59,253 nucleotides of DNA from a virus (lineage: Duplodnaviria > Caudoviricetes), in the IMG/VR virus record IMGVR_UViG_3300025889_000131, positions 1-59,253 of that record; one strand, 5' to 3'. The notes beneath the pieces are model-generated. The model worked only from the letters and a program-made list of their open reading frames with translations, was not told the DNA's origin and searched no databases. Positions 1 to 14,435 of the stretch are shown here, one piece after another; position 1 is the stretch's first letter; every line of letters starts with the position of its first letter. A program made the translations under genes and the position numbers.

Positions 1-625
1 TATAACGCTGCACGTCATTAATGATACCACGCCAATCTGGGTACTTTGCGATAATTAGCTGCTTTAGTACTTTTTCATCATACTCAGAAACATCCTCATT
101 CTCAAGAATAAATTTAATTCTCTTGAAGAACTTAGCAGCCAGAGCAGATGTTTCCTTTTTAGGAATAACAAAATTGACTTCAGTACATCTTGACTTAAGT
201 GCAGGAAGAATCTTGTTTACGTAATTGCAAGTAAGAATAAAACCACAATTCTTACTGAACTCTTCCATAAAACCACGAAGAGCTGGTTGTGTTGACTGTG
301 GATTTAGATAGTCAGCCTCATCAAGAATAACAAACTTACGTCCACCTGAAAATGACGCGGTTGATGCATAATCCTGAATGTCTGTTCGAAGTGTATCAAT
401 ATTTCCACGCATAGATCCATTGATTAGAATATAATCACAACCAACTTCTTCAAGCATGGCCTTGGCGACCGTTGTTTTACCAACACCCTGTGTTCCAGAA
501 AGAATTAAATTAGGCACACCTTTTTCTACAAATGATTCGAAGGTTTTACTCAATTCTTCTGGAAGAATACAGTCTGCAATTTTCTTAGGACGATACTTTT
601 CACACCAAAGAAATTCTTCACTCAT
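1..625 (-). CDS. gp44: Clamp loader AAA+ subunit gp44 (3' end runs off window; missing from ORF track)
   Basis: Manual translation from ATG at 625: MSEEFLWCEKYRP..., Walker A GTQGVGKTT, Walker B ILDEADYL, SRC motif; directly downstream of gp45. Confidence 0.95.
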   Translation of the reverse strand, partial: MSEEFLWCEKYRPKKIADCILPEELSKTFESFVEKGVPNLILSGTQGVGKTTVAKAMLEEVGCDYILINGSMRGNIDTLRTDIQDYASTASFSGGRKFVILDEADYLNPQSTQPALRGFMEEFSKNCGFILTCNYVNKILPALKSRCTEVNFVIPKKETSALAAKFFKRIKFILENEDVSEYDEKVLKQLIIAKYPDWRGIINDVQRY

Positions 626-639
626 AATATAATGACTCC

Positions 640-1278
640 TTACTTACATGTAATCCAATATTTAGCAACTTCGCTTTCAAAGTAAACTGCTTGTTCGTAG
701 ACAGTTACTTTATAATCACCGGGTAGGAATGTCAACTTAGAAACATCGAGTACCGCTTCAAACTCTTTATCAGACTCACCAACTGTTTGATTGAACTGAT
801 TGGCTGTATTGTTCTTGCGATTTGTAACTTTTGCTGTTACGTTTTCTCCGTCACCAGAAAGAATAAAGTCTTCTGCGTTTAGTGTCCCAGCAGCCTTCTT
901 TGCTTTCGAAAAAACTTTTTCTGATACTGTAAATTCAGCAAGAGGATTTTCAAGTTTCAGATTTTTGTCAGGAGGAGAAATAATAGAGTCTGGATGCGCA
1001 AAGAAAAACGTGCCTTTGTTTGATCCATCATTGATAACAGCTTTCTTGTCTTCAATTTCGATTTCATAGTTTTCATCGAATAGACTCAGCATATTTAGAA
1101 AAGAGCTGATGTCATAGATACACATCTCACCATCGATACTTTGCTCAATTTCAAACTCTGCAAGAAAGTTCTTTTGTGGAGACATTGTACGAACAATGCT
1201 TCCTTCTTTAAGAAAAATGGATGGATTGATTAGTGATGCATTCTTAAGAATTTTAATAGTATCGCCACTCAATTGCAT
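640..1278 (-). CDS. gp45: Sliding clamp gp45
   Basis: MQLSGDTIKILKNASLINPSI... and C-terminal LTFLPGDYKV/YWI match the T4 gp45 family; true start probably ATG at 1278 rather than 1461. Confidence 0.92.
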   Translation of the reverse strand: MQLSGDTIKILKNASLINPSIFLKEGSIVRTMSPQKNFLAEFEIEQSIDGEMCIYDISSFLNMLSLFDENYEIEIEDKKAVINDGSNKGTFFFAHPDSIISPPDKNLKLENPLAEFTVSEKVFSKAKKAAGTLNAEDFILSGDGENVTAKVTNRKNNTANQFNQTVGESDKEFEAVLDVSKLTFLPGDYKVTVYEQAVYFESEVAKYWITCK

Positions 1279-1282
1279 TTTA

Positions 1283-1567
1283 TTAGTCCTTTCGCTTATT
1301 TTTAGGAAATTTGATCTGATTTTTGGTCTTTGTTGCCAGATCATCAGCAACATGATAAAACAACATAGCTGTATCTTTGACTCCAAGATGCTGCTTATAA
1401 GCATCCGTTGTAGCAGCAAGAATTCCACCAAGAACAGCACTCGTAGCAATGGATTCTTCATTTACCATTGAGTCTAATTCTAATATATTCTCCGCCATGA
1501 TGTCAATAGTTTGTTTTTTAACTTTTTGGATTTGAAGTTTAATGAGAGCATCTTTACTAACTGGCAT
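1283..1567 (-). CDS. Hypothetical protein
   Basis: Fills the gap in a tightly packed operon; no motif recognised. Confidence 0.6.
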   Translation of the reverse strand: MPVSKDALIKLQIQKVKKQTIDIMAENILELDSMVNEESIATSAVLGGILAATTDAYKQHLGVKDTAMLFYHVADDLATKTKNQIKFPKNKRKD

Positions 1568-1988
1568 ATGAGATCTTTTGCTCCTCTTGTTTTAGATTTC
1601 TGGGAGATGTGTATTCTTTGAGATCTTCATGAACAGAATTAAGAGCAGACATATAATAATGTCTGATCCATTCATGATCAAGAATAACTCTTTCTGTTTT
1701 ACCATCGTTTTGAACACCCACAAGAAATTCAATATCACTGATAATATTTTGTTTTTCATGAAAACGCGGTTCAATGACAAATACATTTTTGAGAAGATGA
1801 CCTTTATCTGCTCTCGCAAAACTGTCTTCGACTGTTTTCTTATAATCATGAGAATGAACAATCATAATAGTGCGGCTGTTCATTTCTTCTACATGATGAG
1901 TAGATCTTCCTGTTCTTCGAGCACCCAAATCTATCATATTGAAAGAATGATTTATCATAAAGTCAAAATCGTCAATTGTCTCAAGCAT
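1557..1988 (-). CDS. Hypothetical protein with degenerate P-loop-like segment
   Basis: Start overlaps the upstream stop; GARRTGRST near the N-terminus. Confidence 0.6.
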   Translation of the reverse strand: MLETIDDFDFMINHSFNMIDLGARRTGRSTHHVEEMNSRTIMIVHSHDYKKTVEDSFARADKGHLLKNVFVIEPRFHEKQNIISDIEFLVGVQNDGKTERVILDHEWIRHYYMSALNSVHEDLKEYTSPRNLKQEEQKISYAS

Positions 1989-2827
1989 TATTTTCTAACC
2001 TCCGCAGCATCAGCAGTTGCGGAAACTCCAACTTGAGCTAAAGCTTCCAGATTACCAGTAAAGTTGTATTTACCAGCATGAGATAATTTCATCCATGGAC
2101 ACATCCAGACTTTAATTCCGATATCTCTTGCCCAACGGCAGAACATGTAATCTTCGGAAAGATATCGATTCGATTTTTCATCAATGACAGTATCAAAGTA
2201 AGCCATGATCTGCCGTGTTCCATCAAAGTGTTTCGTGCGCACATGATCTGGCGTATAGAGTTGCTGTGGGTATGCTTCAGCGAATTTCTCAAATACTCGT
2301 CTTTGGATCATCATAAATCCAGTTCCGCCTTCAGATACTTCTGCTGGCTCATTAATCTTGATTTCACTAACTCCCTCAACTGGATTAAATACGTGATCAC
2401 CAACAAAATTCTCAAGTACATTTGGATTTTCGTCGGCAAATCCTTTATCTACAGCTTTCTTGATTTTCTCCCAGGAAATTGTCTTCTTTGGATAGGGTCC
2501 ACAAACGATATCCTTATCACTATCTGGATCAGCAATAGCAGCCAAAGTCAGAACATCATTAGCATCAAATTGAATATCAGCATCAATGAACATAAGATGG
2601 GTCATATCAGAACGAAGAAATTCATCAACTGTATAATTACGTGCGCGCGTAATAAGACTTTCGTTGAAAAGAAAGAACAGTCTCATATCAATTCCATAAC
2701 GTGTACAGATTGCGGAAAGATCAGCCACAGATTTTGTGTATGTGCCTTCACAAATCCCACCATACATTGGCGTGCCTAAAAAAATCTTTCGTTTTCTAAG
2801 TTCTTCTACTGTAATTTCCATTTCCAT
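1988..2827 (-). CDS. GT-A fold glycosyltransferase-like protein
   Basis: IFLGTPMYGG, ESLITRARN, DxD motif (FIDAD), GTGFMMI, YLSEDYMFC, late H in LSHAG. Confidence 0.8.
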   Translation of the reverse strand: MEMEITVEELRKRKIFLGTPMYGGICEGTYTKSVADLSAICTRYGIDMRLFFLFNESLITRARNYTVDEFLRSDMTHLMFIDADIQFDANDVLTLAAIADPDSDKDIVCGPYPKKTISWEKIKKAVDKGFADENPNVLENFVGDHVFNPVEGVSEIKINEPAEVSEGGTGFMMIQRRVFEKFAEAYPQQLYTPDHVRTKHFDGTRQIMAYFDTVIDEKSNRYLSEDYMFCRWARDIGIKVWMCPWMKLSHAGKYNFTGNLEALAQVGVSATADAAEVRK

Positions 2828-3354
2828 TATACTACTGCTCCAATTCTATCTCTTGCTTTATTAATTTTAACACGCTGTTTTAGTGCTTGTTGCTTATGAT
2901 AACGTGTTGCTCTTTTCAAGAAGTCAATGCCATTGATATGGTCATATTCATGCTGAATAACTCTAGCTGTCATTCCAGTAAAACGGCTGGCTTCAGGCTC
3001 ATTAAATTTGTTTGTCCAACGAAGACGAATACTTTCAGGCCGCTTGATTTTTAAGAATAAACCTGGAAATGATAGACAACCTTCTTCAATATAACATTTC
3101 TCTTCAGATTCATCAACTATTTTTGGATTAAAAATCATTCCAACATCACGTGTCTGATGATTTAAAATTGCAAAGACACTATAAGGATATCCAAGTTGAT
3201 TTGCTGATACTCCAAGAGCCCAGTTCTTTCCATAGAAACAGGACTTGAATGCTTCTTCAAGTTCTTCAATGGGAACCTGTGGATTATCGAAATCAAACGG
3301 TTCTGTTGGTTTATAAAGAATTGGATCTTTGGAATCAACTAATTTGGTCATCAA
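2827..3354 (-). CDS. def: Peptide deformylase
   Basis: All three PDF motifs: GVSANQLG, EGCLS, QHEYDH. Confidence 0.95.
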   Translation of the reverse strand: MMTKLVDSKDPILYKPTEPFDFDNPQVPIEELEEAFKSCFYGKNWALGVSANQLGYPYSVFAILNHQTRDVGMIFNPKIVDESEEKCYIEEGCLSFPGLFLKIKRPESIRLRWTNKFNEPEASRFTGMTARVIQHEYDHINGIDFLKRATRYHKQQALKQRVKINKARDRIGAVV

Positions 3355-3437
3355 TTTCTCTTAGCTTATCAAATATATCTTTGCCAAAAATTTCTTGCAT
3401 AAGAAATTCATATATGTAACGCCCATTATTAAATCTC

Positions 3438-4637
3438 CTATGCAAATTCAAGTTCAGTAATACTTTCGTCCCAGACCTCATGACGCTGTGTATTGTTATC
3501 CTGTAGAAGCTGAGTTGCTTTCATCATTGGAAGTTGACCTTCAAGATATTTCTTAATCTCTGTTGCCATATCTTTAGCTGTCGTCACTGGAACATTCTGA
3601 CAGACATGGTTTAAATTGCGTCTAGGATTGAGCAATTCAAAGTCTGAAGGAAGACCCATAATACCCATGCATTCACGGTATGTCAAAAATCTTTCTTCGA
3701 CTGGGTGAGTCATATTACGTGGAAGATGTCCGACGAAAGCTCCTGTGTAATTTTTAGGTACATAGAGAGCTCTCGTCATGATACCACCACCTGAGTCTAG
3801 TTTTTTCTGACGGCGTTCACATTTCTGAGCTTCTTTTTCATTTCCCTGTTCTCGGAAAAACTTAGCTAACTCTGGAAATGTAATTCCTTTTTTCCGAATA
3901 TATCCAGTCAATTCATATGACTTATCAAGAGATTCCACAAATTCAGCATGTGTCATCCCTGGATGCATTTTGTCCATAATAAAGCAGTAGTATGGATTAT
4001 CTCGAAGTTGTTTTTCGTTTGTCAGTTCTGTTTGAGTATTTCCTTTGAGATTGGAAAGGAATTCTTTGATTGGAGTATATGGACGAGAATAGTATCCCAT
4101 GGTAGGAACATGATCTTTCTCTTTCCAAAAGAAATAAAATGAACGTTGTCTATATTGTGGAAGACCATGAAGCAATGATTTTGTCTTATAGACTGTCATT
4201 GTATATCCGTTGTCTTTACCGATTTTGTAGATACGATCACGAATTTTCTTGCCGGTATTCCCAGCAAATGTAGGAGCGTTTTCACCCCAGAAGACTCTTG
4301 GCTTAATGTTTTCAAGTACATATTCAGCAGTGATAGCCATCCAATCATTTTTTGGATTGTCTGCACCAGAATGATGACTCATAGTACTGAGCCCTGCGCA
4401 TGGGCAAACAGTAGATACAACGTCAACCTCTTTTAGTTTTCTTGGAGGATCATCACCGTCAATGACTCGATACGGAATATCCAATGCTTTCCAGTTATTG
4501 TAGTAATTGATTAAGTGAGAGTCATTTGCTCCAAATGCTTCATATGATGCAATCCATTCTGGAGTTGAACCATAAACTTCATCTGATGCTAAAGAAATTC
4601 CACCAATAAGAGGGATGACACTTGCGTGTGTTATCAT
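3438..4637 (-). CDS. DNA cytosine-C5 methyltransferase-like protein with atypical SAM-binding motifs
   Basis: Motif IV PC (VCPCAGLS), VI ENA, VIII PQYRQR, IX RFLTYRE; motif I reads IPLIGG and motif X reads CQNVP. Confidence 0.85.
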   Translation of the reverse strand: MITHASVIPLIGGISLASDEVYGSTPEWIASYEAFGANDSHLINYYNNWKALDIPYRVIDGDDPPRKLKEVDVVSTVCPCAGLSTMSHHSGADNPKNDWMAITAEYVLENIKPRVFWGENAPTFAGNTGKKIRDRIYKIGKDNGYTMTVYKTKSLLHGLPQYRQRSFYFFWKEKDHVPTMGYYSRPYTPIKEFLSNLKGNTQTELTNEKQLRDNPYYCFIMDKMHPGMTHAEFVESLDKSYELTGYIRKKGITFPELAKFFREQGNEKEAQKCERRQKKLDSGGGIMTRALYVPKNYTGAFVGHLPRNMTHPVEERFLTYRECMGIMGLPSDFELLNPRRNLNHVCQNVPVTTAKDMATEIKKYLEGQLPMMKATQLLQDNNTQRHEVWDESITELEFA

Positions 4638-5509
4638 TCAAACATTCCTTCCAGAGTTTTTACTGGCTCTTTTTTACTTGATTCATAAGCTTTCTTCCAT
4701 TGAATAACTGCTGCGAATTTATCCTGTCCACCCCATTCTCCCATCTTTGCAACCTTTGTTCTGATGGTTACAAATTCTGGAAACTTCCGAGCAAGTTGAG
4801 CCATTGATTTGTTATGGACTTCAAGTGTACGATATTCTGCACAACCACCTTCTGTTTGTGTCAAACCTGGACGCACGCGATATCTAAAACTGATTCGATT
4901 CTTGTATCCTTTGGTAAGCAACTGCAGCAAGATAAAATAATCCTGTGAGCATTTCAATGATGTGAAATCAATTTCTTCTTTTGGAAACGTCTTTCCATTA
5001 TAGAAATGAGCAATTGTCTGTCGCCAACAATCATCGTAATCTTGTTCACGAGGCATATTCCAGGTTGCTTCAAGACCACATGTAACAAACTCATCGAGCC
5101 AGTCGCTAATTTCTTTCATCATATTGTCAAAATAATCTTCGTATCCTTCGCGCTTGACATAATCATTGATTTCTGTATTGACGAGATTGTGCTGATCTTT
5201 TTCGGAGGGGCGTGATGTATAGACAAACTGCATAATGTCATCATCGAAAACAGCATACTTCTGATTACCGGCTTGATAAGCAATCCATTCACGAGTCGGA
5301 CTAAGACCATATTTAAGTGGATCTTCACCTTCTGGTTCTTTGCCTTGACACGGACAGACAAGAACAGGATATCCTTTTTCTTTGAGAGCTTCTTCTTCGT
5401 CAGCTGCAACGACAAGTACTGCTTTTTTCTTCCATTTTTCTGGAAGATAATCGTAAGTAAGTTGATTGTCTACGCGACGATAGGTGGGAATATAAAGAGT
5501 TTCAATCAT
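4634..5509 (-). CDS. DNA base glycosyltransferase (GT-A; T2/T6 beta-glucosyl-HMC-alpha-glucosyltransferase / TET-associated GT family)
   Basis: IPTYRR, GLSPTR, FDDD, DYFILLQLLTKGY, TQTEGGC, HNKSM..LARKFP resemble the recalled family pattern (IPSYQR, GIAGTR, IDDD, AQAPGGC). Confidence 0.8.
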   Translation of the reverse strand: MIETLYIPTYRRVDNQLTYDYLPEKWKKKAVLVVAADEEEALKEKGYPVLVCPCQGKEPEGEDPLKYGLSPTREWIAYQAGNQKYAVFDDDIMQFVYTSRPSEKDQHNLVNTEINDYVKREGYEDYFDNMMKEISDWLDEFVTCGLEATWNMPREQDYDDCWRQTIAHFYNGKTFPKEEIDFTSLKCSQDYFILLQLLTKGYKNRISFRYRVRPGLTQTEGGCAEYRTLEVHNKSMAQLARKFPEFVTIRTKVAKMGEWGGQDKFAAVIQWKKAYESSKKEPVKTLEGMFE

Positions 5510-5511
5510 TG

Positions 5512-6015
5512 TTAATCATCCTTTGGTTCAAATACAACATCAATTTTTTTCTCGGCAGCACAGTAATTACAAACGACCTTTACATGATCTATATATGGGT
5601 GATCGAAGACAGTTTTAAATCCCCACGTTCTAATATCAATATCTTTGCCGTCTTTATATTTTATAACAATAGTTCCTCCGAGATGTACACTGTCATAAAA
5701 ATTTGGATCATTGACAAAACCAGATGATTTCTCTGTTCCATCTAAATCTGTCATTATAACATCTTCAACGGACTTCCAGTTTTTCCAGACATTCTTCATA
5801 TAATGAGTTACTTCTTGCTGAAAGATATCCATCCAATCCCAGACATAATTTACATCTTTCTGATATCTTTCAAGAGATTTACCAAGAATTTCTTCTATAT
5901 CTTTATCGAAATTATTTTCTAAAAATGTATAGTTGGAATCAGCAAATGCGGTTGTTCCAGTTGCCAAAGGAATTGATACAGCAACACCGCTAATCATAAA
6001 GTTACGTCTATTCAT
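5512..6015 (-). CDS. Hypothetical protein with twin-arginine (Tat) signal peptide
   Basis: MNRRNFM followed by a hydrophobic stretch and an AFA cleavage site. Confidence 0.7.
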   Translation of the reverse strand: MNRRNFMISGVAVSIPLATGTTAFADSNYTFLENNFDKDIEEILGKSLERYQKDVNYVWDWMDIFQQEVTHYMKNVWKNWKSVEDVIMTDLDGTEKSSGFVNDPNFYDSVHLGGTIVIKYKDGKDIDIRTWGFKTVFDHPYIDHVKVVCNYCAAEKKIDVVFEPKDD

Positions 6016-6016
6016 C

Positions 6017-6484
6017 TTAAAATTCTCCTAAAATCTCAACCTCAATACCAGTCTCTTCAAAATTCATAAGAGACTGCTTTAGTTTTATTGTCCAAATATT
6101 TTCTGGATCTAGATTTGATACAATGCTGGAAGGCATGATAACACGAGAGATTCCAACCTGAATAATTGCTTTAGAGCAACCGTCACAAATTGGACGACCA
6201 TGGACGTAAAGTACTGATCCTTTTAGCTTTACTCCATTGTATGTAGCATTATATATACAGTTCTCTTCTGCATGCACAGTAAGAGGATACTTTTTTTCTC
6301 TGTTCTCAAGTCTTTCTTGTGTGTCTGCAATTCCACGAGGAAATCCATTGTATCCAATAGACAGCACATAGTTGTCTTCTGGATTGACAGCAACAGCACC
6401 AACTTTTGATGAAGGATCTTTTGACCAAGTAGCTACATGAGCCGCAAGACCCATATATCTTTTATGCCAACTATCTGTAATCAT
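6017..6484 (-). CDS. cd: dCMP deaminase
   Basis: SKDPS.KVGA, GYNGFPRG, HAEEN, PICDGC zinc ligands. Confidence 0.93.
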   Translation of the reverse strand: MITDSWHKRYMGLAAHVATWSKDPSSKVGAVAVNPEDNYVLSIGYNGFPRGIADTQERLENREKKYPLTVHAEENCIYNATYNGVKLKGSVLYVHGRPICDGCSKAIIQVGISRVIMPSSIVSNLDPENIWTIKLKQSLMNFEETGIEVEILGEF

Positions 6485-7190
6485 CTTTCACTTCATTCCA
6501 ATTCTTCTTAGTCATCAAATGATTTCCGGTTTTATACCAAGCCTCTACGCGCCAAAAATCACGTTCGTACACATGAAGACTACCAACCTGCCATGTGATG
6601 ATATATTTCTCAAGTTTCAACATATCAACCATAAGAGATGCAACATGTGATTGCCAAGCATAGTCATTACGATATCCAAACACAACATCATTGCTGCGCA
6701 TTTGCACAACAACTTCAAGTATATTGTTACGAATTAGATATTGCACAGCATTCGTACAGATAAAATCTGAACGACCATTTCTGCAATAATCATTATGCAT
6801 ACTCGGACGATTGTAAATCATTACAGCGCGCCGGCTGTTTGGATTCTTTCTGAGCTCTTCAATAACATTTAGATACTGATTTCCATTGTACTGAGACCAA
6901 ATAAGAAATCCATAGTTAGAATTGATAATGCCATCTTTATCTGCAACCTGCTCCCAGATTTCAGGTACCTTTCCAGGAATATCTTTGACATAAAGAGATT
7001 TTGACTGATACCAAGCCAATTCTCTCTCGATATAGTCATGATTGATCTTTCCGAAAATGGTTGGTTCATCGGCTACAAATGAAGCACCGACGATTTCAAG
7101 AGTCTTTACTCCAGTCTTATCGACAATAAATTCTTTTTCTTCTAAAAGATGACCAAACTCTTCTCTAATTTCGGCCACAAATTTTGTCAT
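6471..7190 (-). CDS. gp42: dCMP hydroxymethylase (thymidylate synthase fold)
   Basis: Closely resembles T4 gp42 (VDKTGVKT.EI.GASFVADEP, INSNYG, DFICTN, MRSNDVVFGYRNDYAWQ with the dCMP-specifying Asp, GSLHVY); start at 7190 with a GAGG RBS. Confidence 0.92.
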   Translation of the reverse strand: MTKFVAEIREEFGHLLEEKEFIVDKTGVKTLEIVGASFVADEPTIFGKINHDYIERELAWYQSKSLYVKDIPGKVPEIWEQVADKDGIINSNYGFLIWSQYNGNQYLNVIEELRKNPNSRRAVMIYNRPSMHNDYCRNGRSDFICTNAVQYLIRNNILEVVVQMRSNDVVFGYRNDYAWQSHVASLMVDMLKLEKYIITWQVGSLHVYERDFWRVEAWYKTGNHLMTKKNWNEVKDDYR

Positions 7191-7197
7191 TACTGCC

Positions 7198-7695
7198 TCA
7201 TTTAAATGTTCCGTACTGATTATTGAAAATGTCTCTGTTGTGTATGTCTTGTCCTTCCATCTCACCACGTAAATATGTTACTGCGAAAGAACAATAATTG
7301 ATGATGTCTTTATATGTATCCTCGATTCCTTCATGATTTGGTTCCTGAGTAGAACCATTTTCAGCAGCTTCAAGTAAACTGCGAGCTCGAAGTACTTTTT
7401 GCTCAATCATATCATGAATAGTAGAAATACCACGGCGATAATGCATGGCTTGTTTCACAGAAGATTTTGGATTTTGATAGTCTCGAGATTTACTGTTCTG
7501 CAGATCAATACATTCCTCAAGTACTATAACTGAATGTCTCTTTTCTGTGGCATAATCAGAATGTAGTCCCCCTCTTTCAGTAACTCCAATAACTTCCATT
7601 TGTCCAGAACCGTCATCTTGAATGGGTTCTTTTCGGATCCGCCAATATTGGTCTTTCCTTGGATATGTTGTGCCGTACGACATCTTTGCTGTCAT
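7198..7695 (-). CDS. Nucleotide-modification-associated (Nmad1/DUF1599-like, all-alpha NTP-PPase) protein
   Basis: KSRDY...K.LR...EGIEDTYKDIINY pattern; adjacent to gp42. Confidence 0.65.
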   Translation of the reverse strand: MTAKMSYGTTYPRKDQYWRIRKEPIQDDGSGQMEVIGVTERGGLHSDYATEKRHSVIVLEECIDLQNSKSRDYQNPKSSVKQAMHYRRGISTIHDMIEQKVLRARSLLEAAENGSTQEPNHEGIEDTYKDIINYCSFAVTYLRGEMEGQDIHNRDIFNNQYGTFK

Positions 7696-8105
7696 TAATT
7701 GTTCTCCTCGAAAATTCCATGATTGCCTTTATGACTCGGTCCTTCCCAACCTTCAGGTTTAATAAGATCCGGCAGACCAAGTTTGTTTGGACGAGATTTA
7801 TTGACACCTCGTTTCTTGGCCATATTTGCTCTCAATACTTCGTCCCATGCTTTATTAGCATCTACATCCATTATATCAAGAGTTCCAATAGCGACAACAC
7901 ATAAATCAATCAATCCGTCAATAATTTCTTCAGGATCTTTCTCTTTAATAGCAGTCTCTGTTTCTTTCAACTCTTCTTTAAGAAAATTCAAACGAAACTT
8001 TAGATGTTCCCAAATCTTTTTCTGGTTATCTTCATCTTGAAGCCAATCATGTACTCCATAATGCTGATGCATGCTGAAAATATCTTGGTACCAATTGTAA
8101 CTCAT
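7695..8105 (-). CDS. MazG-like NTP pyrophosphohydrolase (candidate dCTPase/dUTPase)
   Basis: EELKE...EIIDGLID acidic motif, EVLRANMAK, DLIKPEGW. Confidence 0.8.
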   Translation of the reverse strand: MSYNWYQDIFSMHQHYGVHDWLQDEDNQKKIWEHLKFRLNFLKEELKETETAIKEKDPEEIIDGLIDLCVVAIGTLDIMDVDANKAWDEVLRANMAKKRGVNKSRPNKLGLPDLIKPEGWEGPSHKGNHGIFEENN

Positions 8106-9820
8106 TACGCCTCCATTTCACTAAAATTCTTTACTTTTGAAAATTTGATTACGTTCTTAAATTTGTCTTGTAAGACATCGCCTTTGTGAGAGATTACGAA
8201 TACGTTTGTGTTCTTTCCAATATCATACAGCAACTTCAGAAAATCATCACATCCAGCATTATCAAGAGATGCATCAAAGACTTCGTCGAGAATAAGAAGG
8301 TTTGTGTTAGTACTATTCTTCATCTTCGCAATTGCTCTCCATGTCAACAGAAGAGCAAGATCGATACGCATCTTTTCTCCTTCACTGAAGGAACTGTACT
8401 GAAAACTGTCACGGTGCCGGGATTTGATTGTTTCATTGAACTCTTCATCAATCTCAAATTCAACGAAGAAATCCATCGATGTAAGATACTTATTGATCAG
8501 CTTATTCATAACAGGAATATACTGTTTAATGATTTGTGCTTTGACTCCTCGGTCTTTCAGCATTTCACCACAAACAGTCAATACACTTTTCTCATCAAGT
8601 ATTTCTTGTTTACGAGAATTCTTATTGGAAAGATCTGTCTTTAATAAATCAATATTTGCTTTTTCTGCCTGAATGTCAACTGATTTTTCATTAAGTTTAT
8701 CCATATCACTACGGACTGTTTCAATGTATCTTTCAAGAGAATTCTTTTGACTTCTATATTCAGATACTTTTTCTCTCAGTTCTGAGATTTTAGAAGAGAT
8801 CGTGCGGAAACTTTCTAACTTCTCTTCTAAGGTAGTAATACGCATTTCTGCCTTATTAAGTGCAGTTTCAGTCTTTGCTCGTTTTTTGGATAGAGAATCA
8901 CTTATTTTTAGAATAAAATTTTCATCTATGTCCTGTTTGCAGGTAGGACATTCCGTATTTTCACCGTAAAATGAAATTTCTTTATCCACTTTTCTAATAA
9001 CAGTAGAAAACTTAGATCTATACTGTTCTATCTGTCTAAGCTGTTCACTGAACTTATCTTTTTTAACCAAGAGTGCATTCAGAGAATCTATTTGTTCCTC
9101 TTTCTTATCAATCTTTTCTTCAAGCTTCTCAATGGATTCTTTACTCTCTTTAATCTTCTGTTCATAATCTTCTTTGAGACCTTTCTGGTCACTTTTAAGA
9201 TTATCAACATACTTTCTCTGAATACGAATCTTTTCTTCAAGAATTTCTATTTCGTTTCTAATGCTGTTCAAATTTTCTTTGTTTGATGCAAGCTTTTCTT
9301 TAAGAAGAATGTTCATAACAGAGAACATCTGAATATCTAAGAGATCCTCGATAATTTCACGGCGGCGCCATTTTGTCAACTGCATAAACGGAACAAACGT
9401 AGATGATCCAAGAATGACAATCTGTGTAAATGAATTGAAGTTCAGCTTAAGAATATTGTTCTCAAGAAATTTCTGATAATCTCTTGTAGCTGCGTCTTGA
9501 TTTTGGATATTATCATTACAGTAAATTTCAAATACACCAGGTTTGATACCACGACGAATAAAGTACTTGTTGCTTCCAATGGAGAACCAAACTTCAACTA
9601 TCAAGTTTTTCTTATTCACTGAATTTACAAGTTGGGGTTTATTGATATTACGGAATGGCTTACCAAAAAGCACAAAACACAATGCATCGAGCATAGTAGA
9701 TTTACCAGCTCCATTGTCTCCAACAATTAGTGTATTTGCGTGTGATGCTAAATCAATTTCTGTCCAAGAATTCCCAGTAGACAGAAAATTCTTATAACGA
9801 ATCTTCTCAAAGAAAATCAA
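8105..9820 (-). CDS. gp46: Recombination nuclease ATPase subunit gp46 (Rad50-like)
   Basis: GDNGAGKS, CPTC zinc hook in coiled coil, FSEGEKMR signature, LDEVFD, ISH. Confidence 0.97.
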   Translation of the reverse strand: MIFFEKIRYKNFLSTGNSWTEIDLASHANTLIVGDNGAGKSTMLDALCFVLFGKPFRNINKPQLVNSVNKKNLIVEVWFSIGSNKYFIRRGIKPGVFEIYCNDNIQNQDAATRDYQKFLENNILKLNFNSFTQIVILGSSTFVPFMQLTKWRRREIIEDLLDIQMFSVMNILLKEKLASNKENLNSIRNEIEILEEKIRIQRKYVDNLKSDQKGLKEDYEQKIKESKESIEKLEEKIDKKEEQIDSLNALLVKKDKFSEQLRQIEQYRSKFSTVIRKVDKEISFYGENTECPTCKQDIDENFILKISDSLSKKRAKTETALNKAEMRITTLEEKLESFRTISSKISELREKVSEYRSQKNSLERYIETVRSDMDKLNEKSVDIQAEKANIDLLKTDLSNKNSRKQEILDEKSVLTVCGEMLKDRGVKAQIIKQYIPVMNKLINKYLTSMDFFVEFEIDEEFNETIKSRHRDSFQYSSFSEGEKMRIDLALLLTWRAIAKMKNSTNTNLLILDEVFDASLDNAGCDDFLKLLYDIGKNTNVFVISHKGDVLQDKFKNVIKFSKVKNFSEMEA

Positions 9821-9830
9821 TCAGTATCTC

Positions 9831-10907
9831 CTACTCAACTGCAGTATATTCTTGAGCTTTATGGTAAAACTCTTCCATCTTTCGAGCAACCTGTTTTTTG
9901 AAATCATCGTCAAAATCTTCTGCTTCGATATAATTATGAACGATCGTCATAGTATCTTGTGTTTCTTCGAGAATATCTTCTTCTGATTGTTCATATACGT
10001 TGTGATGATCGTCTGTGATAGAAATAGACTGAGGATTGAATGAATAAAGTTTGTCCAACATCTGATCAAACAGACTCGGTTTTGATTTGTTGCTTACGAC
10101 AACCTTCACATATGTATTTGCATATGAAGAAAAATCTCTCTTAAGAATCTTTTCTCTTGAATCTATACTATCATTGTAAATGATCTTATGAAATAACTTA
10201 TATGGATTCTGCACGAAAGTCAACTCTTTTGTGGAACTATCGAAGATATGAAATCCGCGCGGATCATTATAATCAGACCATGTCATCTCATATGGAGAAC
10301 CTAAGTATTGAATATTCCCCTTCTTTGAACGATGATGAAAATGACCAGAACAAACAAGCTCAAATTTATCGAATAGAGAAGGTTCTGTTCCATCATAGCA
10401 TGCGATAGCATTACGATACATTGCAAAACCTTGAATTTCAAGATGACCGAAACAAACAGTTGCATCTGTGTCTTCGATAGTAGTCATTGATTCTTCAAAG
10501 TTGTCTGCACAAATCCATGGAAGTAATAGTATCTTACAATCGTCAAACTCTACAGTTTGTGGTCCTTCGTATACATGAATATTTTTGTATTCTCTGAAAA
10601 GAAGATCCATAGTATTTATTTTGTTTGTATTTTTATAATATGTCGTATGATTGCCAGCAATACTATGAAGTTTGATATTTTTTTCCCTCAATTTATCAAA
10701 CCACATTCCTTTAGATTCGGATAATGTTTTAAAGTTAACAAACTTTCTTCTATCAAATGTATCACCCAAATCAATAACTGTATCTATGTTTTTCTTTTCT
10801 AAATATGGAAAGAAAACATTACTATAAAATTTATCATAGTATTCATACATCACACCACTATCGTTTCTACTTCCAAAATGCTGATCCGTAATAAGAGCAA
10901 TTTTCAT
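9831..10907 (-). CDS. gp47: Recombination nuclease subunit gp47 (Mre11-like)
   Basis: DQHFG, GDTFD, GNH, GHLE, SGHFH metallophosphoesterase motifs. Confidence 0.96.
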   Translation of the reverse strand: MKIALITDQHFGSRNDSGVMYEYYDKFYSNVFFPYLEKKNIDTVIDLGDTFDRRKFVNFKTLSESKGMWFDKLREKNIKLHSIAGNHTTYYKNTNKINTMDLLFREYKNIHVYEGPQTVEFDDCKILLLPWICADNFEESMTTIEDTDATVCFGHLEIQGFAMYRNAIACYDGTEPSLFDKFELVCSGHFHHRSKKGNIQYLGSPYEMTWSDYNDPRGFHIFDSSTKELTFVQNPYKLFHKIIYNDSIDSREKILKRDFSSYANTYVKVVVSNKSKPSLFDQMLDKLYSFNPQSISITDDHHNVYEQSEEDILEETQDTMTIVHNYIEAEDFDDDFKKQVARKMEEFYHKAQEYTAVE

Positions 10908-11284
10908 TATCGTCTAAGCCTATTGATTACTGCTGGTCCAACTTGAGTCCAATCGACATATGGTCTTTTACCATGAGCTACTTTAGAGAAATTCAGAGGA
11001 CAACCAAATGCAGCATCATCAATATAAATCTGTGCTTCTGCTTTTGGAGACTCTGACCAACGACTAATGCTCTGATTTACAGCATCAAATTCAATTCCAC
11101 GGTCAGAGCAATATTGAACAGCCTCAGCAAGTTCTTTTCCGTCTCTCATTGTCCAAAGAATAAGTTTGGCTCCCATTTCTCTGAATGCTGTCATGTACTC
11201 AATAGCATAAGAAACAGGGACACCAATATTTGGATATTCATGTTCAACTATAGTTCCGTCAAAGTCAATAGCAATTGTCAACAT
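10907..11284 (-). CDS. Small HAD-superfamily phosphatase
   Basis: IAIDFDGT, WT.R, K, YIDD. Confidence 0.85.
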   Translation of the reverse strand: MLTIAIDFDGTIVEHEYPNIGVPVSYAIEYMTAFREMGAKLILWTMRDGKELAEAVQYCSDRGIEFDAVNQSISRWSESPKAEAQIYIDDAAFGCPLNFSKVAHGKRPYVDWTQVGPAVINRLRR

Positions 11285-11472
11285 TCATCTATCTCCCATG
11301 CCCAGTTTACGACAACCCAGTCATCAATACAATTTTCTCGACTGATCAAATGATCTCTATTTACCTTTCTCACTTTATCACACCAATAGTCCCAATATTC
11401 AGATATGATATCATCTTCAGATTTTATTATCAAATCATCTTGACCATATTCATGATAAGCATAATATTTCAT
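11278..11472 (-). CDS. Hypothetical protein
   Basis: Overlaps both neighbours; Trp-rich 64 aa. Confidence 0.65.
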   Translation of the reverse strand: MKYYAYHEYGQDDLIIKSEDDIISEYWDYWCDKVRKVNRDHLISRENCIDDWVVVNWAWEIDEC

Positions 11473-12005
11473 TACAGACCTTTCTTTTTCTCGTAATCCT
11501 TTACGAATTGATTGATACCTTCGTCACTAAATTCTTTATACACAACCTGTGTACCAATATGGTCAAAAGCATCTGAACCCCATGTAAGTTTATCTGTTTC
11601 TTGTTTTGTAGAAGCTGCCATTTGTGAGTTTACATGGTCCGTGATTTTATGCTTGTTATAAGAGTACTTCTGTTCCTTTGCAATTTTTCTCCAAAAGGCC
11701 CATTTAGTAATTTGTGTGAAATATGAAAATGGACTCTTCGATTTTTGAGGATCAAAATTGTGAAAGTATCTAACACAATTCTCAATAGCATCAGACACCA
11801 TATCCTCTCGGAATGGATAGTTTCTATACTTGAGATCATATGAAAGTCTTTCTGCAATCTTATAAAGACACTCTCCAAGATAATGAGTAAGCGGAGGAGT
11901 TTCTTGTTTGTTTCTCTCTGCTTTATGAACGTCTTTATAATATTCTACGATTGCAGTATAAAATTCTTCATTGTCTACATAGTGTTCAGGATTTTGTTTA
12001 CTCAT
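11472..12005 (-). CDS. gp55: Late sigma factor gp55
   Basis: HYVDNEEF, KIAERLS, NY.FREDMVSDAIENC, PFSYFTQI..AF.R.I.KE.K. Confidence 0.95.
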   Translation of the reverse strand: MSKQNPEHYVDNEEFYTAIVEYYKDVHKAERNKQETPPLTHYLGECLYKIAERLSYDLKYRNYPFREDMVSDAIENCVRYFHNFDPQKSKSPFSYFTQITKWAFWRKIAKEQKYSYNKHKITDHVNSQMAASTKQETDKLTWGSDAFDHIGTQVVYKEFSDEGINQFVKDYEKKKGL

Positions 12006-12442
12006 TAGTTCAATTTGATAGAGTTATTTGATACAAGTGTCATCATAGCTTCAAAAATTTCTCTATTCTTTCCTTTCAATTCAGATAGTGCTTCACTTTC
12101 ATTGTCTTCATCAAAGTCATCTTCATGCTCATATTCACTTGTTCTATTAGTATACATCGAATATGTAGATTTAGCATATCCGTCTTGAATAGTAATATTA
12201 GGAGATTCTAACAGGACAACATGCTTCCTGTCAACTAAAAATGTCTCGGAATCAGAAAATGGCATCCACAAAGCAAGTCCATGCGCAACTATCATTCCAT
12301 TATTGAGAAATCGAATCTCTATTGGTCGATAAAGTTCTATCTTATCTGGGTCTTGCTGATCAACATAACTGATCAAAAGATCTCCTGATGTCAGTTTTAC
12401 TAACAAAATTTCATAGTCTTTATTCATAGGTTCATCAATCAT
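12005..12442 (-). CDS. Conserved hypothetical protein (Sm-like, KLxSGD motif) between uvsW and gp55
   Basis: LVKLTSGDLLIS...WMPFSD; GGAG RBS precedes the ATG at 12442. Confidence 0.65.
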   Translation of the reverse strand: MIDEPMNKDYEILLVKLTSGDLLISYVDQQDPDKIELYRPIEIRFLNNGMIVAHGLALWMPFSDSETFLVDRKHVVLLESPNITIQDGYAKSTYSMYTNRTSEYEHEDDFDEDNESEALSELKGKNREIFEAMMTLVSNNSIKLN

Positions 12443-12507
12443 ATCTAACTCCGTTGTGAGAAATAAAATAAGAGAAAGTGCGAAAAGTAAAGGAAGCCAG
12501 AATTTAA

Positions 12508-13989
12508 TCATCTGATTGTCTTTACTTTATAGTCGAACTCCTCTTCAATGTAATACTGTACTCGCTTGAAAAAATGTTTTAGTGTGTAATTTGCACGGCC
12601 ATTCCATTTAAGATCGTCTACAATATCGAATATCTTTGCCATTGATTTTCCTTCCGCTAGTCGTAAGGCTCTGCCAATACTTTGAAGATTTCTAACACGA
12701 GACTTACTAGGACTACACAGGACCACATTGTGTAAATTACGAATGTTAACACCAGTAGAAAATACACCAACAGAAGCGACAATAATACAATCATCGTTGC
12801 TTTCACATAGTTTACGAACACGCTCCCTATCCTCTGAAGCAACTCTACCGGATACAAAAAATACTTTCCTGGCATCTCCTGCTCTTTCTCGTATCATGTC
12901 GAATAAAGGCTCGCCATGTTTTTCGACAAACTGAAATAGAAGAAGGGTATTGCCTTTGCACATCATTGAAAGATTTGTCAGCATTTGATTTCGTTTTGAA
13001 TTTGTGACAATCCAGTCGATCTCGTCATGATACTTCATTTTTGAAACGAGACGGCAGTCTTTTGGTGGATACTGCAATACTGTACAGAAAATCTTTAGAT
13101 TGGAAATATGCTCGGATTCGATAAGTTCTTTTGTTTTGACAAACTGCTTTACTTTTCCAAACAGTCCTTCCACAGATAGTTTGTGTGCACCTTCCGAATT
13201 ATCTTTAAGTGTTCCAGTAAATCCAAATCTTGCCGGGCATTTTTTAAGTCGTTCGAGAATTTTCTTGAGCGACTTGGCATCGTATAAATGGCATTCATCT
13301 CCTATAACACATCTATATTTATCAAAGTACTTCTTTGGTAGTTTTACGAGTGACTGCCATGTGGAAATAGTAATTGGACAATCAGATCTTGGATCAATTC
13401 CAGCCTGTACACAATGAATATTTTCTGACGGCATTCCATAATCAACGAAATCATCACGCATCTGATTCACAAGAGAAATTGTCGGTACAATAACAAGTAC
13501 TGGTTTCGACATATAAAATTTGGCTAATCCATAAATGATAAGTGATTTACCACTTGCTGTAGGACTTAGAATTGTAGCTCTTTGTTCGTTTATGCAATAA
13601 TGAAAGCTGTCAACTTGATAATCTCTGGGTTCGTACTTAGATATTCTTCTAAAATACTTCTCTGCGTCAGACCTAGATATTGCAGGATGGTCTGTACTTT
13701 TGTATTCAACATCGTATCCTCTTTGTTTTGCAAACACTTTGATATGAGGAAGTAATCCTTTATAGATTTTTCCTGTCTTTGTACTAAACAGACGAATCTT
13801 ACCGTCCCAAACTTTGTTTCTAAATCGTTTGTCCCATTTCTTATTTGGAGACTCGAAAGAAAAGAAGTCCGAAATCTCTTGTGTAATTCCGTTCTGAGCT
13901 TCTACTTTAATATGGACATGGTCTATATCAGTAATTTTTAGCATATTGTCTGGCACATCACTTTCACATACAGCGAAAAATGGATTCAT
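12508..13989 (-). CDS. uvsW: DNA helicase UvsW
   Basis: PRDYQ, SPTASGKS, DECH, GFTGT, QSIGR.LR. Confidence 0.96.
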   Translation of the reverse strand: MNPFFAVCESDVPDNMLKITDIDHVHIKVEAQNGITQEISDFFSFESPNKKWDKRFRNKVWDGKIRLFSTKTGKIYKGLLPHIKVFAKQRGYDVEYKSTDHPAISRSDAEKYFRRISKYEPRDYQVDSFHYCINEQRATILSPTASGKSLIIYGLAKFYMSKPVLVIVPTISLVNQMRDDFVDYGMPSENIHCVQAGIDPRSDCPITISTWQSLVKLPKKYFDKYRCVIGDECHLYDAKSLKKILERLKKCPARFGFTGTLKDNSEGAHKLSVEGLFGKVKQFVKTKELIESEHISNLKIFCTVLQYPPKDCRLVSKMKYHDEIDWIVTNSKRNQMLTNLSMMCKGNTLLLFQFVEKHGEPLFDMIRERAGDARKVFFVSGRVASEDRERVRKLCESNDDCIIVASVGVFSTGVNIRNLHNVVLCSPSKSRVRNLQSIGRALRLAEGKSMAKIFDIVDDLKWNGRANYTLKHFFKRVQYYIEEEFDYKVKTIR

Positions 13990-14429: not shown

Positions 14430-14435
14430 AAATGA

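Follow-up and report, generated by a model that had tools for sequence, protein, structure and literature searches.

What does a T4-like phage make with the genes that it carries between gp46 and gp45, and why is an enzyme with the fold of a DNA cytosine-5 methyltransferase among them? The window analysed here (59,253 nucleotides, about 33% of the genome) comes from an uncultured freshwater/aquatic T4-like myovirus, and on its minus strand 11 ORFs of at least 90 aa and one of 48 aa lie head to tail at 1283-8105. The best explanation, to which we assign a probability of about 55%, is that this block is transcribed together with the replication genes and is a cytosine-replacement module, in which hydroxymethylcytosine (hmC) would be synthesized and then glycosylated, with a putative further step by the methyltransferase-like enzyme. 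Very probably the block makes hmC and adds a sugar to it, a known kind of DNA camouflage. The system is thus of a known kind, here with a constant, divergent C5-methyltransferase-fold enzyme (hereafter MT-like) as its new part. Relatives were compared in 116 contigs or loci, which yielded 86 distinct MT-like sequences, 60 complete intervals and 54 distinct loci whose flank reached 5 kb or more.

Layout of the gp46-gp45 interval

The block is flanked on one side by gp46, a SbcC/Rad50-like recombination nuclease subunit (8105..9820; phrog_77, E 5.5e-181), and on the other by the gp45 sliding clamp (640..1278; phrog_223, E 5.7e-59), whose alignment begins at residue 62 of the long frame, the Met that is its real start; these genes, like all those described below, lie on the minus strand. 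Neighbouring ORFs overlap by 1-14 nt or are spaced by 1-7 nt, and the sole larger gap, 83 nt between the MT-like and deformylase genes, is filled by the 48-aa ORF (3335..3481; phrog_13346, E 3.2e-5), which overlaps both neighbours and whose reality is uncertain. As regards timing, we counted 12 copies of the T4-type late promoter word where 3.6 were expected, none of them inside 1-14,900. An assembly artefact is excluded by contigs of other studies that bridge the stretch: X17 record 9 spans window positions 1-5857, X17 record 14 spans 5922-8873, and contigs from X7 match it at about 99.9%.

A sequence-only reading of this DNA had described eleven tightly coupled genes forming a self-contained island inserted between gp45 and gp46. 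The gene content, hmC synthesis and linkage that it proposed stand, but its single, self-contained island and its second MazG protein do not. Genes for a dNMP kinase or for sugar-nucleotide supply are absent from 1283-8105. Moreover, the peptide deformylase (2827..3354; PF01327, E 3.5e-31), which lies outside the DNA pathway, and a 279-aa GT-A-fold glycosyltransferase (1988..2827; phrog_1574, E 4.3e-64; AF2 pLDDT 88.4) occupy the same gp46-gp45 interval in DLP_6 and Cr30, two phages without a gp42 homologue in their complete genomes; the deformylase and this GT-A are therefore regarded as backbone genes. The 279-aa model matches STIV A197, collagen galactosyltransferase and GalNAc-transferases in Foldseek, and its DxD and EDY are invariant in 24 sequences. 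The block does contain two different GT-A enzymes, as had been proposed, but this one is not tied to hmC.

The small ORFs complete the interval. The 167-aa ORF (5512..6015), with a twin-arginine-like N-terminal signal, has no Pfam, PHROG or NCBIfam match and only TAT-signal-like Atlas rows with scores of at most 0.80, and tblastn matched it in none of the first 23 loci (in L004 the region lies past the locus end); it is probably a passenger gene. No family match in Pfam, PHROG or NCBIfam was found for the 94-aa ORF (1283..1567) or for the 143-aa ORF (1557..1988), the latter belonging to viral hypothetical clusters in the Atlas at 0.94.

Probable synthesis and glycosylation of hydroxymethylcytosine

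The gp42-type dCMP hydroxymethylase (6471..7190) has 239 aa when counted from the second in-frame Met (starting at the GTG instead would give 265 aa and an overlap with the gene upstream). It is 58% identical to Tequatrovirus gp42 and matches the T4 crystal-structure sequence (PDB 1b49) at E 9.8e-87, with identical active-site stretches and aligned Cys and Asp positions. It retains the Cys and the Asp residues at ThyA 143, 169 and 177, of which those at 169 and 177 are common to 59/60 relatives and that at 143 to 57/60. Residues of this kind separate hydroxymethylases from 5-hydroxycytosine-type synthases, and the synthases of RB69 and DLP3, which carry Asn at ThyA 169, produce 5-hydroxy-dCMP (PMC13326640); the window enzyme and 59/60 relatives have Asp there. 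Judged by its active-site residues, the window's thymidylate-synthase homologue is of the hmC type and not of the 5-hydroxycytosine type, and the earlier claim of hmC synthesis before replication, on the nucleotide, is supported. By strong homology, the enzyme would convert dCMP to 5-hydroxymethyl-dCMP.

The genes beside it fit such a pathway. Upstream of gp42, a position conserved in relatives, lies a MazG/PRA-PH-type nucleotide pyrophosphohydrolase of 136 aa (7695..8105; PF01503, E 1.2e-10; phrog_671, E 3.4e-23); among solved structures the MazG-like DR2231 is closest to it. It would clear the competing dCTP and/or dUTP, probably together with the 165-aa DUF1599 ('nucleotide modification associated domain 1') protein (7198..7695; PF07659, E 1.9e-7), whose gene adjoins gp42 on the upstream side in relatives. 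The two proteins match the two halves of a single 264-position profile, phrog_18404, so that fused forms probably exist. Of the two MazG-type proteins recognized earlier, only the first is one; in an hhalign profile comparison the DUF1599 protein did not match its MazG neighbour significantly (E 0.31). The 155-aa dCMP deaminase (6017..6484; PF00383, E 1.1e-18; phrog_174, E 3.4e-43), which directly follows gp42 in most relatives, could supply dUMP for dTMP synthesis. A thymidylate synthase, a PRA-PH protein and a dCMP deaminase together were reported to mark cytosine-modified viral contigs (PMC8670742; bioRxiv 2024.12.05.627091), and, according to that preprint, 5hm-dC forms are substrates for 7/90 assayed deaminases that neighbour such synthases, so that hmU could also arise. 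The triphosphate would then come from a host kinase or from one that the phage encodes elsewhere, with the result that new DNA would be built with hmC.

After replication, a sugar could be moved from a host nucleotide-sugar to the hmC hydroxyl by the TAGT/JGT-like GT-A glycosyltransferase of 291 aa (4634..5509; PF20691, 44.3 bits against a cut-off of 27.5; phrog_842, E 4e-35). Its residues R12, D89-D91 and D190 are invariant among 7 homologues, in an R/DDD/(E/Q)DY arrangement that agrees with the R...DDD...EDY/F motif set out for this family in the Pyle preprint (bioRxiv 2023.12.21.572611), and thus the active-site motif of the family is kept. Family membership and position suggest that it is a DNA hmC glycosyltransferase. 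Its relative in T2/T6, to which it is 24% identical, is annotated for the second glucose and not the first (phrog_842 is named 'beta-glucosyl-HMC-alpha-glucosyltransferase'), so that hmC as the acceptor is something that we infer. This annotation, together with the two thirds of the genome that lie outside the window and could encode a first transferase, leaves some room for an enzyme that adds only a second sugar or does not act on DNA at all. We consider this unlikely, as the enzyme fills the exact slot held in relatives by the T4-type alpha-glucosyltransferase (AGT), GT-A enzymes of this kind glycosylate 5hmC directly according to the same preprint, and a search of the 106-kb record of a TAGT-type relative found no AGT, although it caught AGT in a positive control. 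No match to the T4-type alpha- or beta-glucosyltransferase families occurs anywhere in the 59-kb window, as had been noted; the rest of the genome may hold a T4-type glucosyltransferase, a kinase or a gene for cofactor synthesis. The decoration route proposed earlier as foreign to T4 is only partly supported: the family concerned is already known on hmC DNA, and AGT sits in the same slot in 24/60 relatives.

The MT-like enzyme and the swappable cassette

Across the 116 related contigs the recurring order is MazG-DUF1599-gp42-deaminase-[cassette]-MT-like-GT-A-gp45, and gp42 lies upstream of the MT-like gene in 53/54 of the distinct loci with a flank of 5 kb or more, though the intervening genes change; the survey of gene neighbourhoods thus confirmed the linkage. 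The decoration slot is a swappable cassette, with T4-type AGT commonest among the 60 complete intervals (24/60) and TAGT in 6/60. Other relatives carry different glycosyltransferases with sugar-nucleotide enzymes, or a 5-hmdU-DNA-kinase-like protein with partners. The remaining classes are UDP-galactopyranose mutase with phrog_14998 (8/60), phrog_14998 alone (2/60), a GT4-like enzyme (4/60), GT-B with HAD and nucleotidyltransferase (3/60), a kinase-like set (8/60), a PLP-enzyme set (3/60) and a hydroxylase-like set (2/60). The constant companion of gp42 is the MT-like gene, translationally coupled to the last cassette gene; in the window its start overlaps the stop of the 291-aa GT-A gene by 4 nt.

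The MT-like enzyme (399 aa, 3438..4637; PF00145, E 4.1e-21; AF2 pLDDT 88.8) has a C5-methyltransferase fold, in line with its earlier description as C5-MTase-like; in Foldseek its model matches M.HhaI, HaeIII, MET1 and CmoX with E values between 1e-13 and 1e-11 and identities of 13-16%. In motifs IV, VI and VIII it can be aligned with E. coli Dcm, and among the 86 distinct sequences we counted CPCA in 82/86, CPCS in 3/86, QxRxR in 86/86, GENA in 84/86, CQNV in 85/86 and (I/V)PLIGG in 86/86. An Asp at the motif III position and the Asn aligned with motif X are retained. The Gln of Dcm motif IV is replaced by Ala or Ser in 85/86, Leu stands in place of the first Gly of motif I in 86/86, no conserved motif II acid was seen, and the first 140 residues have no sequence match to solved methylases. 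Going by these motifs, the enzyme keeps all that is needed to flip cytosine and attack C6, with an altered cofactor side, and it is both the constant and the novel piece of the module, divergent but with its catalytic motifs intact.

We tentatively prefer the reading that it is not a plain methylase but acts on a C5-substituted cytosine (hmC or an activated form) or transfers a group larger than methyl. Nearly as likely, it could be an ordinary SAM-dependent DNA cytosine-5 methyltransferase that adds a second protective layer at unreplaced cytosines or at a short motif, and it would be linked to gp42 only through a shared 'DNA protection' operon. The Pfam match, the fold and the retained Asp are in keeping with this, as is the conservation of the catalytic Cys, Glu, Arg-x-Arg and motif X Asn in 85-86/86; family members are named 'site-specific DNA-cytosine methylase' in their sources, and a 34% identical homologue (L123) adjoins an N6/N4 methylase, as an ordinary orphan methylase would, with no synthase within 8 kb. 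The N-terminal motifs are unalignable to solved methylases, so that SAM binding may be retained. However, the unmatched N-terminus and the Leu in motif I also speak against an ordinary methylase, and phage DNA would offer it no substrate if hmC fully replaces cytosine. The gene, moreover, stays fixed beside gp42 while its neighbours change, and the motif IV replacement resembles Q82A of M.HhaI, which lowered methylation considerably and opened the pocket to larger groups (PMC10666283).

A more specific proposal, which we hold to be rather unlikely, is that the catalytic Cys attacks C6 of hmC in DNA, the 5-CH2-OH (or its sugar or phosphate ester) leaves and another group adds; the product would be a new cytosine derivative, with the neighbouring cassette supplying the activation or the incoming group. 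C5-methylases are able to exchange groups on hmC in vitro, and the Gln to Ala change would open the pocket next to C5. In four divergent phage groups the enzyme is constantly paired with a synthase of the hydroxymethylase type, which is consistent with this, as is the phrog_13881 protein directly upstream of MT-like in 13/60 intervals, 8 of the 13 also with the 5-hmdU-DNA-kinase-like protein, which recalls the activation logic of thymidine hypermodification. Against it, no natural precedent was found in full-text searches of the literature, the partner in the window and in 24/60 relatives is a plain glycosyltransferase that needs no such help, and the MT-like enzyme, as far as compared, varies little with cassette type. 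Least probable by some distance is that it marks, traps or deaminates cytosines of unmodified host DNA as a form of host shut-off to which phage hmC DNA is immune, a purely inferential idea with no sequence signal, even though unmodified cytosine would be found only in host DNA during infection by an hmC phage, the C6-attack residues are kept but those for the cofactor altered, C5-methylases are known to deaminate without SAM, and one relative's module has a weak match to a DenB-like C-DNA endonuclease (phrog_1360, E 1.5e-6).

Comparison with known systems

The closest parallel is the T-even hmC pathway. The hydroxymethylase is of the same family with identical active-site residues, the deaminase and an all-alpha pyrophosphohydrolase beside gp42 recall the T-even cd deaminase and gp56 dCTPase, and the decorating enzyme is related to that of T2/T6, with AGT the most frequent cassette in relatives. 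The window differs in having all parts in one gp46-gp45 operon and no AGT or BGT, and its lineage in adding DUF1599 and the MT-like enzyme as constant members and in a slot with at least nine cassette compositions. T4 is not known to have a C5-methylase.

The clusters of methyltransferase, TET (5mYOX) and glycosyltransferase genes in phages likewise place a C5-methyltransferase-family gene beside a JGT-like GT-A that decorates 5hmC (Burke 2021, PMC8256090; Pyle 2023 preprint). Unlike in those clusters, no dioxygenase was seen by Pfam in the window block, and hmC would come from a gp42-type synthase before replication, so that a methylase is not needed to make a 5mC precursor. The accessible text of the preprint describes co-occurrence of GT-A genes with thymidylate synthases and does not treat the methylase-synthase pair.

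A phage C5-methylase homologue with an activity other than methylation is already known in CmoX, the C5-carboxymethyltransferase of Synechococcus phage S-B43 (PMC12783734; PDB 8yf3), which is a structural neighbour of the MT-like model (Foldseek rank 19, E 3.2e-11). The defining features of CmoX are an SPPC motif and an Arg replacing Asn304 of HhaI, and it is accompanied by CmoA (PMC12783734), whereas the MT-like enzyme has CPCA and retains the Asn; nothing like CmoA was noticed in the ORF scan.

Distant MT-like homologues (30-34% identity) accompany dCMP-type thymidylate synthase homologues in Pseudoalteromonas phage XG4 and cyanophage S-TIM54, and in a gut MAG the two share a bin only. Finally, the arabinosyl-5-hydroxycytosine clusters of RB69 and DLP3 resemble the block in placing a thymidylate synthase homologue beside glycosyltransferases in a T4-like phage (PMC13326640), and the HAD phosphatase and nucleotidyltransferase-kinase fusion of relatives such as XG4 are similar to the sugar-supply genes of RB69.

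The putative modification block and its surroundings

The window, whose completeness is put at ~33% for the IMG/VR record (59,253 bases), carries every gene from base 1 to ~54.8 kb on the minus strand. Scans against PHROG and Pfam recovered a T4-like set of replication and structural genes comprising gp44, gp45, gp46, gp47, gp55, a UvsW-like helicase and UvsY, together with the major capsid, portal, sheath, tube, terminase and baseplate proteins. Identity of the major capsid protein to those of cultured phages does not exceed 63.5%, with Methylophilales phage Melnitz as the best match and cyanophages next.

Between gp46 and gp45, the block (1283-8105, minus strand throughout) contains 11 ORFs of at least 90 aa and one 48-aa ORF, with neighbors overlapping by 1-14 nt or spaced by 1-7 nt; the ORF calls thus bear out the eleven tightly packed genes that had been described from the sequence alone. 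From the gp46 side, the order is a MazG/PRA-PH protein (7695-8105), a DUF1599 protein (7198-7695), a gp42-type synthase (6471-7190), a dCMP deaminase (6017-6484), a 167-aa ORF with a twin-arginine-like leader and no family (5512-6015), a 291-aa GT-A glycosyltransferase of the TAGT family (4634-5509) and a 399-aa C5-methyltransferase-like protein (3438-4637; hereafter MT-like). The 48-aa ORF comes next, followed by a peptide deformylase (2827-3354), a 279-aa protein (1988-2827) and, last before gp45, two ORFs without an assigned family (1557-1988 and 1283-1567). Two starts were corrected, that of gp45 to the Met at residue 62 of the long frame (640-1278) and that of gp42 to the second in-frame Met (6471-7190).

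The block is not an assembly artefact, because it is reproduced by contigs of other studies (from the metagenome dataset X17, record 9 spans 1-5857 and record 14 spans 5922-8873, and contigs of dataset X7 match at ~99.9%) and by the independent IMG/VR contig L004, which repeats 2-5431 at ~100% protein identity. Dataset X8 covers 9 of 30 bins of the stretch. Near-identical DNA was present in metagenome runs of 16 studies, of freshwater and aquatic origin with one marine run, and the phage collection contained no megablast match to the block.

In the window, 12 copies of the T4-type late promoter word were counted where shuffling predicts 3.6; they span 14994-55227 and mostly lie directly upstream of structural genes. 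Since the word search of the window found none before 14.9 kb, and so none in the replication block, the block belongs with the early/middle replication genes. Neither sigma-70-like promoters (56 vs. 47 ± 6.8) nor terminators (3 vs. 5.7) exceeded the shuffled expectation in the window. As a separate observation, the 167-aa ORF (5512-6015, minus strand) places a twin-arginine-type export signal amid a DNA-modification operon, and none of the first 23 related loci showed a homologue; Atlas look-ups returned no usable family for this ORF or for a 143-aa ORF.

Probable synthesis and glycosylation of hydroxymethylcytosine

In the sequence-only reading, 5-hydroxymethylcytosine (hmC) is made before replication and then decorated by a non-T4 route, possibly giving a new base. 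The first part of that proposal depends on the gp42-type synthase, which has a thymidylate synthase fold (PF00303, E 1.9e-17), is 58% identical to Tequatrovirus gp42 and matches the crystal sequence of T4 dCMP hydroxymethylase (PDB 1b49) over residues 5-231 with E 9.8e-87. In the alignment to T4, SDFICTN pairs with SDFMCTN and RSNDVVFGYRND with RSNDVVFGFRND, and the enzyme keeps the catalytic Cys, an Asp at ThyA N177 and, at ThyA L143, an acidic residue. For some "gp42" homologues the product is 5-hydroxy-dCMP (PMC13326640, 2026), and that paper sets out a residue rule in E. coli ThyA numbering, by which Asp at 177 indicates a dCMP substrate, an acidic residue at 143 indicates a non-methyl product through water access, and Asn at 169 indicates a 5-hydroxy product (PMC13326640). 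The window synthase reads Asp/Asp/Asp at 177, 143 and 169, identical to T4; among 60 relatives, Asp at 169 and 177 is found in 59 and the position 143 signature in 57. A 5-hydroxy-dCMP synthase of the RB69 gp48 type was rejected, as Asp169 (RSND), not Asn, is kept in the window and in 59/60 relatives. By its diagnostic residues, then, the window synthase is predicted to be an hmC-type enzyme, and its earlier identification as a gp42-like dCMP hydroxymethylase is supported. [quoted passage not shown]

Among the nucleotide companions, the dCMP deaminase is clear by PF00383, as had been proposed, and the 136-aa MazG protein matches PF01503 at 42 bits (cut-off 21.3). The second of the two "MazG-type" proteins is better described as DUF1599: the two proteins match separate halves of one PHROG profile, and direct comparison of their profiles was not significant (hhalign E 0.31). 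Two reports describe cytosine-modified viral contigs as typically carrying thymidylate synthase, PRA-PH and dCMP deaminase together (PMC8670742; bioRxiv 2024.12.05.627091). Outside the block, a 125-aa protein (10907-11284, minus strand) bears the PHROG name "phosphoheptose isomerase" (phrog_1238), but a small phosphatase of the HAD type is the likelier identity (NF046079, E 2.2e-30, which is below that model's cut-off). Proteins of phrog_1238 also occur inside the decoration cassettes of relatives and beside gp42 in Pseudoalteromonas phage XG4, and they are similar to a phosphatase proposed to act on a sugar phosphate in the arabinose pathway of RB69; the 125-aa protein may feed a sugar donor.

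The 291-aa GT-A scores 44.3 bits against PF20691 (TAGT; cut-off 27.5) and E 4e-35 against phrog_842, a PHROG annotated after the T2/T6 "beta-glucosyl-HMC-alpha-glucosyltransferase," to which it is ~24% identical. R12, D89-D90-D91 and D190 are invariant in seven homologues, with QDY in the window and EDF in the others. A preprint by Pyle describes an active site R...DDD...EDY/F in GT-A enzymes of phages that are relatives of the base-J glucosyltransferase, and reports that these enzymes place sugars on 5hmC (bioRxiv 2023.12.21.572611); the residues of the 291-aa protein fit this site. In the second step, a sugar would be put on the hmC hydroxyl after hmC synthesis; we think this probable, the homology being strong and both the catalytic residues and the position conserved.

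The claim that no T4-type glucosyltransferase is encoded here was upheld in that neither PF11440 (alpha-glucosyltransferase, AGT) nor PF09198 (beta-glucosyltransferase) matched in the window at E ≤0.01; the former profile found AGT in relatives, while the latter, run without a positive control, matched nothing anywhere. AGT was likewise absent from the 106-kb record behind L006, the closest long relative of the window, in a search whose positive control gave AGT.

As for the two GT-A glycosyltransferases of the sequence-only reading, both are of the GT-A type but only the 291-aa protein would be tied to hmC. The model of the 279-aa protein (pLDDT 88.4) shows a GT-A fold with Foldseek matches to viral, collagen and mucin-type transferases, and its DxD and EDY are invariant. 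However, this gene and the deformylase occupy the same gp46/gp45 position in Stenotrophomonas phage DLP_6 and Caulobacter phage Cr30, whose complete genomes contain no gp42 homologue, which places both among the backbone genes and outside the hmC pathway.

A fixed gene pair beside a variable cassette

Relatives carrying the MT-like protein were collected as 21 and then 80 IMG/VR loci, plus 16 contigs filed under metagenome-assembled genomes (MAGs) of many phyla. The gene is present in 116 loci, representing 86 distinct protein segments. A survey of gene neighborhoods confirmed the linkage expected of a modification island: among distinct loci, gp42 lies upstream of the MT-like gene in 53 of the 54 whose flank reaches at least 5 kb, and in 60 of the 65 with 3 kb or more. 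Where gp42 was missed at the 3-kb limit, the flank falls short of the distances found at other loci (up to 7.5 kb), except in L123, a gut-derived MAG contig. The 279-aa GT-A follows downstream in 40/54 loci with at least 4.5 kb on that side.

The interval between the deaminase and the MT-like gene is variable. In 60 complete intervals, it held a T4-type alpha-glucosyltransferase (PF11440, E ~1e-74) in 24 and TAGT, the class of the window's own cassette, in six. A myo-inositol-phosphate-synthase-like protein with PNK/HAD-like, 5-hmdU-DNA-kinase-like and phrog_13881 proteins occupied eight, and UDP-galactopyranose mutase with phrog_14998 another eight, phrog_14998 alone being found in two. The remaining contents were a GT4-like protein (4/60), GT-B with HAD and a nucleotidyltransferase-kinase (3/60), a PLP enzyme with the phrog_13881 set (3/60), and a hydroxylase-like protein with phrog_799 and phrog_13881 (2/60).

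The four-gene kinase-like cassette is exemplified in relatives by L023:5815-8004, L014:5762-8007, L063:4188-6310, L096:6794-9300 and others; its 5-hmdU-DNA-kinase-like part is PF18723 and its phrog_13881 protein has 365 aa. Fused forms of these two proteins probably exist, since PHROG profile 17781 spans both. All of the 8/60 relatives with this cassette have an hmC-type synthase, and the cassette may represent a phosphorylation-based hypermodification of hmC.

The MAG contigs (L110-L124), which share the phage's gene order, are spread over the bins of eight or more unrelated bacterial groups (Rhodobacteraceae, Bacteroidetes, Planctomycetes, Actinobacteria and Verrucomicrobia among them), and a scan of cellular genomes with the MT-like protein returned only MAG contigs and no isolate genome. 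They are most simply explained as mis-binned phage DNA, and for that reason we name no host from them.

The combination of hmC with glycosylation is the textbook escape of T-even phages from restriction and CRISPR cleavage, and its logic is already known. The Pyle preprint also notes, in general terms, that GT-A genes are associated with thymidylate synthases, clamp genes and deaminases (bioRxiv 2023.12.21.572611). What appears to be new is the fixed pairing of a divergent enzyme of C5-MTase fold with a gp42-type synthase next to a swappable decoration slot, for which a search of the full-text literature found no paper, although supplementary tables of the Pyle/MetaGPA work may list such contigs. 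The window places T-even logic in an abundant uncultured aquatic lineage, within one operon having a plug-in slot for different decorations, and the lineage offers a catalogue of candidate DNA-modifying enzymes that includes glycosyltransferases of several folds, sugar-nucleotide enzymes and kinase-like proteins.

Beyond these loci, the MT-like family counts 1,802 proteins at E <1e-5. In phage XG4, a homologue (32% identity) and a gp42-type synthase are 4.6 kb apart, the genes between them encoding a HAD phosphatase, a nucleotidyltransferase-kinase fusion, a GT-B-like protein and a 368-aa protein without assignment. On contig L123, a 34% homologue adjoins an N6/N4 methylase, and no synthase was encountered up to 8 kb away; another contig of its bin carries a gp42-type synthase with sugar genes, a weak link made by the bin only. 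In cyanophage S-TIM54, a homologue (31%) lies near a "ThyA" with Asp at ThyA 177. This "ThyA" (L001:6117-6959) thus has the mark of a dCMP-using enzyme, and it keeps His after the catalytic Cys; judged from sequence, its product could be either 5-methyl- or 5-hydroxymethyl-dCMP.

The C5-methyltransferase-like enzyme

That the block encodes a C5-MTase-like enzyme is supported by a PF00145 match (E ~4e-21) and by an AF2 model (pLDDT 88.8) with a two-domain C5-MTase fold, for which Foldseek returned M.HhaI, HaeIII, MET1 and DNMT1 (probability 1.00, TM 0.5-0.68) and CmoX, at 13-16% identity. Motifs IV (Pro-Cys), VI (Glu-Asn) and VIII (Gln-x-Arg-x-Arg) and the Asn of motif X align with those of E. 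coli Dcm, and among 86 MT-like sequences Gln-x-Arg-x-Arg is present in all 86, Pro-Cys and Cys-Gln-Asn-Val in 85 each, and Gly-Glu-Asn-Ala in 84. In the C5-MTase class, Glu and Arg read N4 and O2 of cytosine (PMC12783734); because both are kept, the enzyme probably flips a cytosine-type base and attacks it at C6.

Other motifs diverge, including motifs I and II, which in C5 methyltransferases serve SAM. Motif I reads (I/V)PLIGG in 86/86 sequences versus FAGIGG in Dcm, the first Gly having become Leu and the Phe-x-Gly-x-Gly pattern being lost. Motif II, placed by eye from the alignment, has no conserved acid, the residue after the conserved Ser-Tyr being E, D, S or K, and the Gln after Pro-Cys in motif IV, which aligns to a Gln in Dcm, is replaced by Ala (82/86) or Ser (3/86). 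With hhalign, only motifs IV-VIII aligned to Dcm, and the first 140 residues gave chance-level matches only, and no solved methylase by sequence, against the PDB. A C5-carboxymethyltransferase of the CmoX type was rejected. The CmoX criteria are an SPPC motif, Arg at the HhaI Asn304 position and CmoA nearby (PMC12783734); the MT-like protein has CPCA and a conserved Asn, and the Pfam and PHROG scans gave no CmoA-like annotation.

The constant MT-like enzyme poses a sharp question, whether it is a mop-up methylase or performs new chemistry on hmC. A C5 methylase would have no obvious substrate in this phage because the C5 positions of hmC DNA are already occupied. C5-methylases can exchange groups on hmC in vitro and can deaminate C without SAM. 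We see a real possibility, at somewhat under even odds, that the enzyme is not a plain methylase; the narrower proposal within this reading, that it processes hmC or activated hmC, is doubtful, and if true it would be useful for epigenetic sequencing tools. A plain methylase mopping up residual C would agree with the retained cytosine-reading residues and would imply that cytosine replacement is incomplete; it faces the same occupied C5 positions, and we hold it as an alternative only slightly less likely. Action on host DNA is improbable. On the reading that the enzyme is not a plain methylase, the MT-like proteins could form a new and widespread class of phage DNA enzymes of C5-MTase fold that acts on hmC DNA or uses a non-SAM cofactor and, with the cassettes, some of which bring 5-hmdU-kinase-like proteins into hmC phages, yields undescribed cytosine derivatives, a proposal that we advance as unlikely in its full form.

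One relative carries the MT-like gene twice in tandem. The second copy (L006:6743-7990; 42% identical) has lost Pro-Cys, Glu-Asn and Gln-Asn, which suggests a paralogue that is catalytically dead beside an intact one.
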